Below, one piece after another: positions 857 to 2,821 of a stretch of DNA of 64,000 nucleotides. Below the pieces are notes generated by a model. That model was not told the origin of the DNA. It ran no database searches and saw only the letters and a list, made by a program, of their open reading frames with translations. This stretch comes from a virus: positions 64,001-128,000 of the IMG/VR virus record IMGVR_UViG_3300036773_000146, one strand, 5' to 3'. The position numbers and the translations under genes are program-made. Numbering within the stretch: position 1 is the stretch's first letter; each line of letters begins with the position of its first letter.

Positions 857-1225
857 TCATCCTGATTCGTGGTACCTCAGCGGCCCATGAACCAGGACGT
901 ACTTGGCAAGGACGTCCCGCGAGATCCGGCCGCGCTCGTTCACCTTGAGCCCCTGCTTGGCCGCCCACGCCCGGATGGCGAGGGACTCGGCCTTGTGGGC
1001 CTCCTTGGGCGTCATGCCCTCGGTGATCTGCAAGTCCATCACGGGCGTGGCCGCGTCGACGAACTCCTGCAGGCGCTGGCGCAGGTCGGTCGCGTTCTCC
1101 TTGCTCAGATCGATCATGTAGTTGATCCCGTCCAGGCCGAAGATGAGCTGCTCGTCGGCCACCACCTGGTGGCCCCGCGCGCGTTCGAGGTCGTCCACCT
1201 TCTGCCGGATGACCTGCTCTGCCAT
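857..1225 (-). CDS. lsr2: Lsr2-like nucleoid-associated protein
   Basis: VDDL..., FGLDGINYMIDLSKENA dimerisation domain; IRAWAAKQGLKVNERGRIS AT-hook domain; RBS GAAAGG. Confidence 0.93.
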   Translation of the reverse strand: MAEQVIRQKVDDLERARGHQVVADEQLIFGLDGINYMIDLSKENATDLRQRLQEFVDAATPVMDLQITEGMTPKEAHKAESLAIRAWAAKQGLKVNERGRISRDVLAKYVLVHGPLRYHESG

Positions 1226-1359
1226 CGTCTGCCTTTCGAGCGAGTTTCGCGTGTAATTTCCCAGAGTTCTGAGGAGATCCGAGCGTATCTCGATCACCTC
1301 TTTCACCGCAATGGCACCGGTATAAGCAGTGCCTTTTCGAGCTGATAAGAGTACTAATT

Positions 1360-1389
1360 GAGCCCGGGAGGAGTGGCCCTCCCGGGCTC
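1360..1389 (-). terminator. stem-loop terminator downstream of the endonuclease VII gene
   Basis: 12-bp inverted repeat GAGCCCGGGAGG/CCTCCCGGGCTC, followed by AT-rich sequence. Confidence 0.7.
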
Positions 1390-1394
1390 GGGGA

Positions 1395-2243
1395 CTACAG
1401 GCGCGAGCGGCACACCGGGCCGATCCCGGCCGTGTCCTGGAGGTACTTCAACAGCTTGGCCACACGGTCCGGGCAGTCAGCGACCATGCCAGCCGAAGAG
1501 TTGCACGCTCCGCACAGCAAGCCCCTGAACTCCCCGGTGGAGTGATCATGATCGACGTGAACCCGATTGCCCGGCTCGGGCGTCCCTTCCCACCCGCAGG
1601 CTTCGCAGCGATTGCCCACCTGCGCCAACCTGTCCAGCACCGCGTCTGCGTCCACTTTGAGCGTTCTGGCACTTTGCCGGAGAGCGCGGTAGAGCCACCT
1701 TTCTGGGTCGGCCTTCCACAGCTCCCGGTCTTTGTCCCTAGCCGCCTTCCTGCGCTCCTCGTACACGTCCGGGCTGTCAGCTTTTAGAGTGCGGAGCCGA
1801 TCCCTGGTCTCGCGAGCAGCGCAGTCCCGGCATCGGGACCGAAGCCTGGTACTCCCGTGCGTGGTCTTCCGCCACCCGAATTCCTCGACCGGCTTGGTCA
1901 ACCCGCAACCGGTGCACTCCTTCTCCGCCTTCGGCGGCTCGAAAGACTTCTCGTAGCAGATGGCGCAGACGTTGCTGCCCTTTCGCTTCTCCCGGCCGCA
2001 GGGGCAGGCATCGCTGCGCACCGACTGGTCGTAGTGCCGAGCGCAAAGGCCCTTGCTGCGCACCGGCTCTCCGCAGTCATCCAGCACGCAGACGCGCCCT
2101 TTGGCTGGCTGGTACTTCGGCAGTGTCGGCCCGACGTCCTTGCGACCGCTTCGGATCCAACGGTCGTAGTGGAGGGCGCAGAGCCCCTTGGTCCTCGGCG
2201 GCTCTGCGCATCCGCCCACTTCGCATTCTGTGGAATCTGTCAC
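1395..2243 (-). CDS. free-standing endonuclease VII-family (HNH) homing endonuclease with N-terminal Zn-binding repeats
   Basis: VHVDHDHSTGEFRGLLCGACN motif; two CxxxxC...KGLCxxHY repeats and a CxxC...CxxC finger. Confidence 0.88.
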   Translation of the reverse strand: MTDSTECEVGGCAEPPRTKGLCALHYDRWIRSGRKDVGPTLPKYQPAKGRVCVLDDCGEPVRSKGLCARHYDQSVRSDACPCGREKRKGSNVCAICYEKSFEPPKAEKECTGCGLTKPVEEFGWRKTTHGSTRLRSRCRDCAARETRDRLRTLKADSPDVYEERRKAARDKDRELWKADPERWLYRALRQSARTLKVDADAVLDRLAQVGNRCEACGWEGTPEPGNRVHVDHDHSTGEFRGLLCGACNSSAGMVADCPDRVAKLLKYLQDTAGIGPVCRSRL

Positions 2244-2821
2244 GAGAGGTTAGTGTAACAAGTCGGGCCGATGCCTCGGCTTCTGGACACCTCGTCGGTG
2301 AGCGTCCGGCCGCAAACGCCGCACTCGCCGATCTCCTTGCCGTAGCGGGCCGTCGCCTCCAGGACGCCATCCGACTCGATCTTCCGGAGCACGGAGCGGG
2401 CGACCACGAACGGCAGCTCGCGCTCCTCGTCCGAAGCCATCACCGCGACGGTGACGTAGCCGGTCTTGGACACCCGCACCCGGTAGAAGGCGGTCTCGCC
2501 GTCCTTGTTGTCCACGGCGTAGCGGCCGTCCGGCACCTCGGGCAGCTTTGGGCGCGGCGTGCGGTCCTCGCGAGGGTCGACCTGCTGGCCCAGCCGGTGC
2601 TCGTTGCGCTCGTCCTTCAGCGCGCTGATGGTGTCGCTGGCCTTGGCGGCGGTGAGCTGACCGGCCTGGTCCTGGGCGCGCAGCTCGAACCACAGCTGAC
2701 GGCCGCGCTCCACGTCGTACTCGGCGATCTGGGTAAGCAGGTCCGTCAAGAAGTCGATCTGGCCCTGGCTGCGCTGGCGCGGGGCGCTGGCGGTGCGGGG
2801 GAAGTTGCGGGTCGAGTTCAT
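2240..2821 (-). CDS. DUF6011-type Zn-finger protein
   Basis: C-terminal CGVCGRTLTDEVSRSRGIGPTC motif. Confidence 0.75.
   Translation of the reverse strand: MNSTRNFPRTASAPRQRSQGQIDFLTDLLTQIAEYDVERGRQLWFELRAQDQAGQLTAAKASDTISALKDERNEHRLGQQVDPREDRTPRPKLPEVPDGRYAVDNKDGETAFYRVRVSKTGYVTVAVMASDEERELPFVVARSVLRKIESDGVLEATARYGKEIGECGVCGRTLTDEVSRSRGIGPTCYTNLS

Follow-up and report, generated by a model that had tools for sequence, protein, structure and literature searches.

An Endonuclease VII-motif nuclease gene inserted at the 3′ end of an actinophage DUF6011 gene ends in the displaced tail of its host gene

Organization of the DUF6011 locus

The window analysed here is a 64,000-nucleotide stretch (bases 64,001–128,000) of a 149,735 bp IMG/VR virus contig, IMGVR_UViG_3300036773_000146, a complete actinophage genome (67% G+C) with direct terminal repeats, whose genes have homologues in phages of Mycobacterium, Gordonia, and Streptomyces. 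Within it a DUF6011 gene, an open reading frame (ORF) coding for an Endonuclease VII (Endo VII)-motif nuclease, and an Lsr2-like gene are all encoded on the minus strand (Table 1). The nuclease gene is inserted relative to three syntenic loci, and the codons with which it now terminates are the original 3′ end of the DUF6011 gene. We propose that this is a homing-type nuclease gene that would have arrived with a substitute tail for its host gene and absorbed the native one.

The DUF6011 protein matches phrog_636 over its whole length of 193 residues, and its PF19474 domain (residues 158–192, E 5e-14, profile positions 2–36 of 37) is complete, including the part encoded by the new tail at 2240–2284. 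The nuclease gene comes directly next, its GTG start overlapping the DUF6011 TGA stop as GTGA, and a promoter scan found no promoter-like site belonging to it. The host ORF terminates at a stop of its own and the nuclease ORF begins at a separate, overlapping start, and an Rfam search at E≤1 reported no intron family between 1000 and 3200. A group I intron or intein as the carrier of the nuclease is rejected on the Rfam result, and the earlier claim, made from the sequence alone, that no splicing is involved agrees with both observations. A hairpin that is a putative terminator lies 3′ of the nuclease stop; it has no U-run and was for that reason missed by a simple terminator scan.

Table 1. 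Features of the DUF6011–nuclease locus (coordinates in the window).
Feature	Coordinates	Strand	Remarks
DUF6011 gene	2240–2821	-	193 residues; PF19474 and phrog_636
DUF6011 native body, codons 1–179	2285–2821	-	PF19474, phrog_636; 175/180 residues identical to P0001; high GC3 (G+C at third codon positions)
DUF6011 replacement tail, 14 codons and TGA	2240–2284	-	departs from P0001 and L097 beginning at codon 180/181; low GC3
Endo VII-motif nuclease ORF	1395–2243	-	282 residues; PF02945; GTG start
Nuclease ORF, inserted part (DHHRN-type)	1433–2243	-	PF02945, endonuclease VII/HNH PHROGs; absent in L083, L084, L097
Nuclease N-terminal Cys/His-rich repeats, residues 1–105	1929–2243	-	conserved C...C...GLCxxHY repeats; presumed DNA-binding
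Catalytic Endo VII motif, residues 208–269	1437–1622	-	CxxC, DHDH, R, CxxC, N; PF02945
Displaced native DUF6011 tail, ~12 codons and native TAG	1395–1432	-	collinear with DUF6011 3′ end in L097; GC3 1.0
Native hairpin (putative terminator) of DUF6011 gene	1360–1389	-	-29.8 kcal/mol, z -5.0
Lsr2-like gene, native downstream neighbour of DUF6011 gene	857–1306	-	PF11774, PF23359

Syntenic loci lacking the nuclease define the inserted segment

A profile scan of IMG/VR yielded two syntenic relatives of the locus, L083 (a 49 kb contig) and L084 (155 kb), and a metagenome scan yielded a third, L097, on a 1,233 bp JGI contig. In L083 and L084 the gene order is a gene of 133 or 143 codons, the DUF6011 gene, the hairpin, Lsr2, and a gene of 72 codons, with no nuclease gene, and the site is thus polymorphic, being occupied in the window and empty in L083, L084, and L097. 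The L097 DUF6011 gene ends ...AAGIGPVCSSRL and is followed directly by the matching hairpin and Lsr2, and the L083 gene ends ...GIGPVCASKF. This is the structure that the sequence-only reading had foreseen for endonuclease-free loci, with a GIGPVC-type ending placed directly before the hairpin.

The right-hand breakpoint is exact. Starting from the codon before G-I-G-P, L097 and the minus strand of the window are identical at 489 of 500 nucleotides without a gap (97.8%), across the last 12 codons, the stop, the hairpin, and the start of Lsr2, with ~460 of these nucleotides lying beyond the tail. The homology breaks at 1432/1433, inside the nuclease ORF, past which the window continues with the ...K-Y-L-Q-D codons of the nuclease. 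At the other end we relied on P0001, the closest orthologue of the DUF6011 protein, in which 175 of the first 180 residues are identical to those of the window; it has a native-type ending (...AAGIGPVCASRM), with identity at only 5 of the last 12 residues. The L097 homology break and the switch in the P0001 tail together place the inserted block at ~1433–2284 (net +848 nucleotides), with the insertion point some two codons 5′ of those that encode the conserved G-I-G-P-x-C. The block consists of a substitute tail and the nuclease gene, whose ORF continues in frame across the displaced native tail and terminates at the native stop. The proposal that the element lies within the gene and reuses the original tail and stop is therefore borne out by the three empty loci and the position of the homology break.

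Several other features of these loci are of interest. L097 is 93% identical to the window upstream of the DUF6011 start and 75% identical in the DUF6011 body (window 2285–2821, L097:205–733), falling to ~60–65% in the second half of the body, so that with the 97.8% identity downstream there is a sharp mosaic boundary at the nuclease-bearing site. The syntenic orthologue in L084 (L084:3459–4043, plus strand) has G-I-G-D-E-C in place of the near-invariant G-I-G-P-x-C, a natural variant at the presumed target. The hairpin 3′ of the DUF6011 stop occupies the same position in the window, L097, L083, and L084 (-26.6 to -33.5 kcal/mol), and the stem changes among the four preserve pairing.

The two tails differ in sequence and codon usage

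The DUF6011 gene of the window ends ...SRSRGIGPTCYTNLS, encoded by AGA AGC CGA GGC ATC GGC CCG ACT TGT TAC ACT AAC CTC TCG TGA, and the nuclease ORF ends ...QDTAGIGPVCRSRL, with G or C at the third position of every codon. Atypical codons had been reported for the first of these tails and GC3 codons ahead of the terminator for the second, and both descriptions are accurate. The new tail contains five A/T-ending codons (AGA, CGA, ACT twice, and TGT) among its 14, as against 8 among the 179 in the remainder of the gene (Fisher p 0.0009), and these account for 2% (AGA), 4% (ACT), 7% (CGA), and 10.5% (TGT) of their synonymous codons in the genome. The 14-codon tail window stands at the 3.8th percentile of 37,083 genome windows and at the 8th percentile of gene-terminal windows, and the codon oddity is thus real but moderate, and would not decide the matter alone. 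GC3 is 0.955 in the native DUF6011 body, 0.64 in the new tail, 0.78–0.81 in the nuclease, and 1.0 in the old native tail (the mean of the genome's genes is 0.886), and this pattern, with inserted sequence lower than the native flanks, agrees with an inserted block at 1433–2284.

One element of the sequence-only reading fails here, in that the replacement tail is not a synonymous recoding of the native one. The G-I-G-P-x-C core is all that the two have in common, and about 7 of 12 aligned residues differ. The new tail has diverged at most positions outside the G-I-G-P codons, and within those codons it differs from the native tail by one base. The two tails share a short direct repeat there, of nine exact bases. 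A tyrosine following the motif cysteine is found in the window and in the DUF6011 protein P0012 alone among 150 DUF6011 tails. The motif cysteine codon is TGT in both occupied alleles (the window and L003, described below) and TGC in 19 of 19 loci without this nuclease (Fisher p 0.005).

The nuclease is predicted to be a homing-type enzyme

Pfam assigns residues 208–269 of the 282-residue ORF to PF02945 (Endonuclease_7; E 4e-16), and the Cys/His-rich repeats in residues 1–128 match HNH-endonuclease PHROGs 5351 and 1271. The catalytic motif is intact, comprising C213-x2-C216, D231-H232-D233-H234, R240, C244-x2-C247, and N248. Across 29 homologues C213, C216, D231, H232, H234, R240, C244, and N248 are invariant and C247 is conserved in at least 90%, with D233 not among the conserved residues; the catalytic set is also conserved in an alignment of seven homologues. 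An AlphaFold model (mean predicted local distance difference test score, pLDDT, 87.3) resembles the beta-beta-alpha-metal fold of its top Foldseek matches, Hpy99I (E 4e-5) and T4 Endo VII (E 0.01–0.03, root-mean-square deviation 4.2–4.5 Å over 90 columns).

A signature of CX2-4C, DHDH, a conserved R, CX2C, and N defines the Endo VII-motif DHHRN homing endonucleases, typified by F-CphI, and in the endonuclease clade of that family the motif is at the C-terminus (PMC6083498). The window's nuclease carries this signature at its C-terminus, preceded by a distinct N-terminal region, which is the arrangement of the endonuclease clade rather than of the resolvase clade. It is therefore predicted to be a free-standing homing-type endonuclease of the Endo VII-motif class, similar to F-CphI and the DHHRN family.

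The GIGPVC-type ending is not part of this enzyme's domain. The last 13 residues lie outside it, as PF02945 stops at residue 269, and they are modelled as unstructured, with a pLDDT of 57 and then 47, where the remainder averages ~90.

The public gene call for this ORF (P0035, 230 residues) is truncated and begins at an internal GTG at residue 53. Residues 1–52 are conserved in P0036 and five other homologues, supporting the 282-residue form.

Captured DUF6011 tails recur in diverged nucleases

When 1.84 billion representatives were searched exhaustively without a profile, 52,976 relatives of the nuclease emerged; the best 150 of them, combined with earlier matches, made up a set of 161 whose tails were inspected. 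Five of the 161, including the window's nuclease, end in GxGPxC (the others are P0036, P0056, P0068/P0197, and P0129), and ~155 have no DUF6011-type ending. Closer relatives of the window's nuclease (P0049, P0050, and P0038) stop a few residues past the conserved Y-L. The tails of the other four are each different (GIGPVCAAK, GMGPDC..., GLGPDCAAK, and GIGPDCAGRLGL), and they vary in step with the diversity of DUF6011 tails. Since they track that diversity, and closer relatives are tailless, we read the four other cases as repeated captures of native tails at sites of one kind. A motif of the nuclease family as the source of the tail is rejected both by the ~155 relatives without it and by the 97.8% match to the L097 DUF6011 3′ end. 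The attribution of GIGPxC to the upstream family rather than to endonuclease VII therefore holds. GIGPVC-type endings in related nucleases had been named as a sign against capture; formally such endings exist in these four, and it is their reading as a family motif that falls away.

P0036 is instructive in this respect. It shares 60% identity with the window's nuclease, starting likewise with M-T-D-S-T, and it probably adjoins the DUF6011 protein P0012, as each reports a longest contig of 82,877 bp. The P0012 tail resembles the new tail of the window, and the captured tail of P0036 matches P0011, the closest relative of P0012 (57% identical).

A second occupied locus is present in L003, a 69.5 kb IMG/VR contig, where a 223-residue nuclease (48% identical) follows a longer DUF6011-type gene, P0201 (called at 312 residues), the start of the nuclease overlapping the P0201 stop as TAATG. 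The P0201 tail codons include ATA, TGT, AGA, GCA, and TAA. The nuclease ends SGRLG, and P0202, the closest orthologue of P0201, ends ...GIGPVCSGRLG, so that in L003, too, the nuclease ends with the native tail and its stop. Less of the native tail is retained than in the window, which points either to another junction or to erosion of the repeat at a later time. The next gene 3′ of this nuclease (L003:3660–4004, plus strand) has a GTG start that appears to overlap the native stop, as GTGA, and retention of the native tail and stop may here preserve translational coupling to that gene. An assembly artefact is unlikely, as the ORFs are intact and the layout is found in the independent L003 contig and implied by the captured tail of P0036.

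Other types of nuclease genes also lie close to DUF6011 gene ends. In L102 an ORF with an HNH_3 domain (PF13392, E 3e-6; L102:479–955, plus strand) overlaps the last ~35 nucleotides of a DUF6011 gene ending at 513, whose tail is rich in A/T-ending codons (GCT, GGA, ATT, GGA, GTA, AAA) in a contig of 68% G+C. The pattern points to a second invasion of this gene end, independent of the first and by a different nuclease family. In L100 an HNH/NUMOD3-type endonuclease gene (L100:2806–3387, plus strand) begins ~170 nucleotides past a DUF6011 stop at 2639. With the Endo VII type of the window, the DUF6011 3′ flank is accompanied by three nuclease families, and at least that many appear to use the 3′ end of the gene as a recurrent landing site.

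Further searches added no occupied loci. Scans of IMG/VR with the single proteins found no matches to the window's DUF6011 protein or nuclease, and a scan with the L003 DUF6011 gene matched itself alone. A genome-contig scan with P0197 returned a distant Rhodococcus relative only; P0197 was found neither in 401 sampled genomes of that class nor in plasmids, and a search of cultured phages for P0129 was negative. In IMG/VR a degenerate DNA pattern for Y-L-(1–5 residues)-G-I-G-P-x-C matched 52 times, in no case within a nuclease gene.

Origin of the arrangement

We favour the interpretation, with a probability of about 0.8, that a homing-type nuclease gene inserted in the DUF6011 3′ end together with a substitute tail, and absorbed the native tail. 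The inserted block opens with a diverged copy of the last 13–14 codons of the gene and a stop, so that the DUF6011 protein stays whole. The overlap of the nuclease GTG with the DUF6011 stop suggests translational coupling without a promoter of its own, and the nuclease ORF runs in frame into the displaced native tail and stop, just before the native hairpin. The enzyme would recognise the conserved S-R-A-A-G-I-G-P-coding DNA of uninvaded DUF6011 genes and cut at or near the junction, and upon co-infection, repair from an occupied genome would copy the block in. The carrier would presumably be protected by the splitting of the target and by the altered flanks of the new tail, including the TGT cysteine codon in place of TGC. 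Any immunity would depend on altered flanks on both sides of G-I-G-P, since the core codons are one base from native. In this scheme cleavage and homing by the enzyme, like the immunity conferred by the new tail, are plausible but unproven.

Several points weigh against this interpretation. The phage is uncultured, and cleavage, homing, and immunity are predictions from its sequence; not all Endo VII-motif proteins are homing enzymes, resolvases and restriction enzymes being found among them (PMC6083498). A recognition site confined to the core, with its single base of difference, would leave the new tail non-immune by itself. The codon bias of the tail is moderate when set among gene ends, L097 is the only near-identical empty allele and is so on the right flank only, and the left breakpoint rests on the P0001 protein as identity to L097 falls to 75% in the DUF6011 body. 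Only the window and L003 show the recurrence at DUF6011 loci directly.

The nuclease could instead have entered in a one-off illegitimate event, carrying a DUF6011 3′ piece from another phage by non-homologous or microhomology recombination and simply being inherited thereafter, as an enzyme that does not home at this site and may act in defence or anti-defence or be resolvase-like. Phage genomes are mosaic, as in the 75% identity of the window and L097 DUF6011 bodies between flanks of 93–98%; the nuclease activity is itself predicted; and Endo VII-motif proteins include resolvases and restriction enzymes (PMC6083498). We nonetheless regard a single accident as unlikely. L003 repeats the layout with another DUF6011-type host gene and a nuclease that is 48% identical, the host stop and the nuclease start overlap at each of the two occupied loci, and at least four further diverged nucleases have lineage-specific DUF6011 tails. 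In addition, the motif occupies the C-terminus and follows repeats that resemble DNA-binding modules, a placement typical of the endonuclease clade rather than of the resolvase clade.

Occupancy could also be ancestral, with the empty alleles arising by precise deletion through recombination between the tail copies. Such recombination across the nine-base repeat in the G-I-G-P codons would restore the gene, and occasional loss is plausible, but as the origin of the empty state it is very improbable. The nuclease is missing from 19 fetched loci and from hundreds of DUF6011 genes of cultured actinophages (453 records, with Serendipitous and Archimedes as the checked examples), and the native tails of the empties are uniform in codon style, with the cysteine TGC in all 19. 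The GC3 of the inserted block is foreign-looking, and a captured tail is present in a small minority of the nuclease relatives. We give less credence still to the GIGPVC ending as a functional module of the nuclease, such as a shared DNA- or metal-binding motif, rather than a captured remnant. Five related nucleases do end in GxGPxC, but the identity with L097 extends from the tail through the following ~460 nucleotides, and the ending is lacking in most relatives, including the closer P0049, P0050, and P0038. Of the 37-residue DUF6011 domain the nuclease contains just the final third, which does not include the CxxC part, and the tail has a pLDDT below 60.

A broader hypothesis builds on capture of the native tail by a homing-type nuclease, and we consider it about as likely as not. 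It supposes a lineage of Endo VII-motif homing nucleases specialised on the G-I-G-P-x-C-coding 3′ ends of DUF6011 genes across actinophages, carrying a portable substitute tail that would both repair the host gene and protect the carrier, and capturing the local tail, stop, and terminator at each site.

Relationship to known mobile endonucleases and implications

The closest parallels are the mobile endonuclease ORFs (mORFs) of fungal mitochondria that are associated with a C-terminal duplication, as in Allomyces macrogynus atp6 and Glomus sp. atp6, atp9, cox2, and nad3 (PMC3630166). In these, it is the inserted, foreign C-terminus that completes the gene, and the copy closest to relatives is the native one downstream (PMC3630166). 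The window likewise has an endonuclease ORF in the 3′ part of a host gene, a diverged C-terminal copy ahead of it that completes the host ORF, and a native C-terminus left downstream that is nearer to relatives than the inserted copy (97.8% to L097), with no intron or intein. It differs in its phage host, in the use of an Endo VII-motif (PF02945) rather than a LAGLIDADG or GIY-YIG nuclease, in the very short duplicated segment (~12 codons), and in the overlap of the nuclease start with the host stop. The native tail is moreover no dead remnant, forming the C-terminus of the nuclease and supplying its stop and terminator. The phage element would work like the fungal mORFs but does not belong to those lineages. 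The layout is therefore known from fungal mitochondria, and what is new is the bacteriophage host, the class of nuclease, the short duplicate, and the read-through to the native stop and terminator.

With F-CphI of cyanophage S-PM2 and the DHHRN family (PMC6083498) the nuclease shares the catalytic signature, the C-terminal motif behind an N-terminal region, the predicted fold matching Hpy99I and T4 Endo VII, and a free-standing, phage-borne gene. F-CphI adjoins an intron-bearing gene and cuts the intron insertion site, whereas the window's nuclease has no intron and lies inside the host coding end, and the likeness in sequence is at the level of the motif. Free-standing HNH endonucleases that split genes include T4 mobA in the topoisomerase gene 39/60 and Aeh1 mobE in nrdA (PMC2988022); these too lie within a coding region without splicing, have no promoter of their own, and overlap the upstream ORF. 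They split the host protein into two polypeptides that reassemble, whereas the DUF6011 protein stays in one piece through its substitute ending. The Seg and Mob endonucleases of T-even phages undergo intergenic 'intronless homing' (PMC2988022), and the presence/absence polymorphism between related phages is similar, as is the expected spread by double-strand-break repair with co-conversion of flanks. They are situated between genes and target the neighbouring gene, whereas here the insertion point and the probable target are in the last codons of the host gene. A literature search, in an incomplete collection, turned up no account of DUF6011 or of such an arrangement in phages.

A short conserved C-terminal motif of a phage nuclease can be the remnant of a neighbouring gene, and this has consequences for annotation. 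With both states of the site in hand, one can read off the target, the breakpoint, and the candidate changes for immunity. In one view nuclease genes lie at the borders of genetic exchange between phages (PMC10448857), and apparent recurrent landing at DUF6011 3′ ends fits with this. The arrangement suggests that a selfish nuclease can colonise coding sequence without an intron or intein and without splitting the host protein, by means of a short replacement ending. If the broader hypothesis is true, the mitochondrial C-terminal-replacement elements would have their first counterpart in phages, one that would also offer a natural system whose immunity determinant comes down to a dozen codons.

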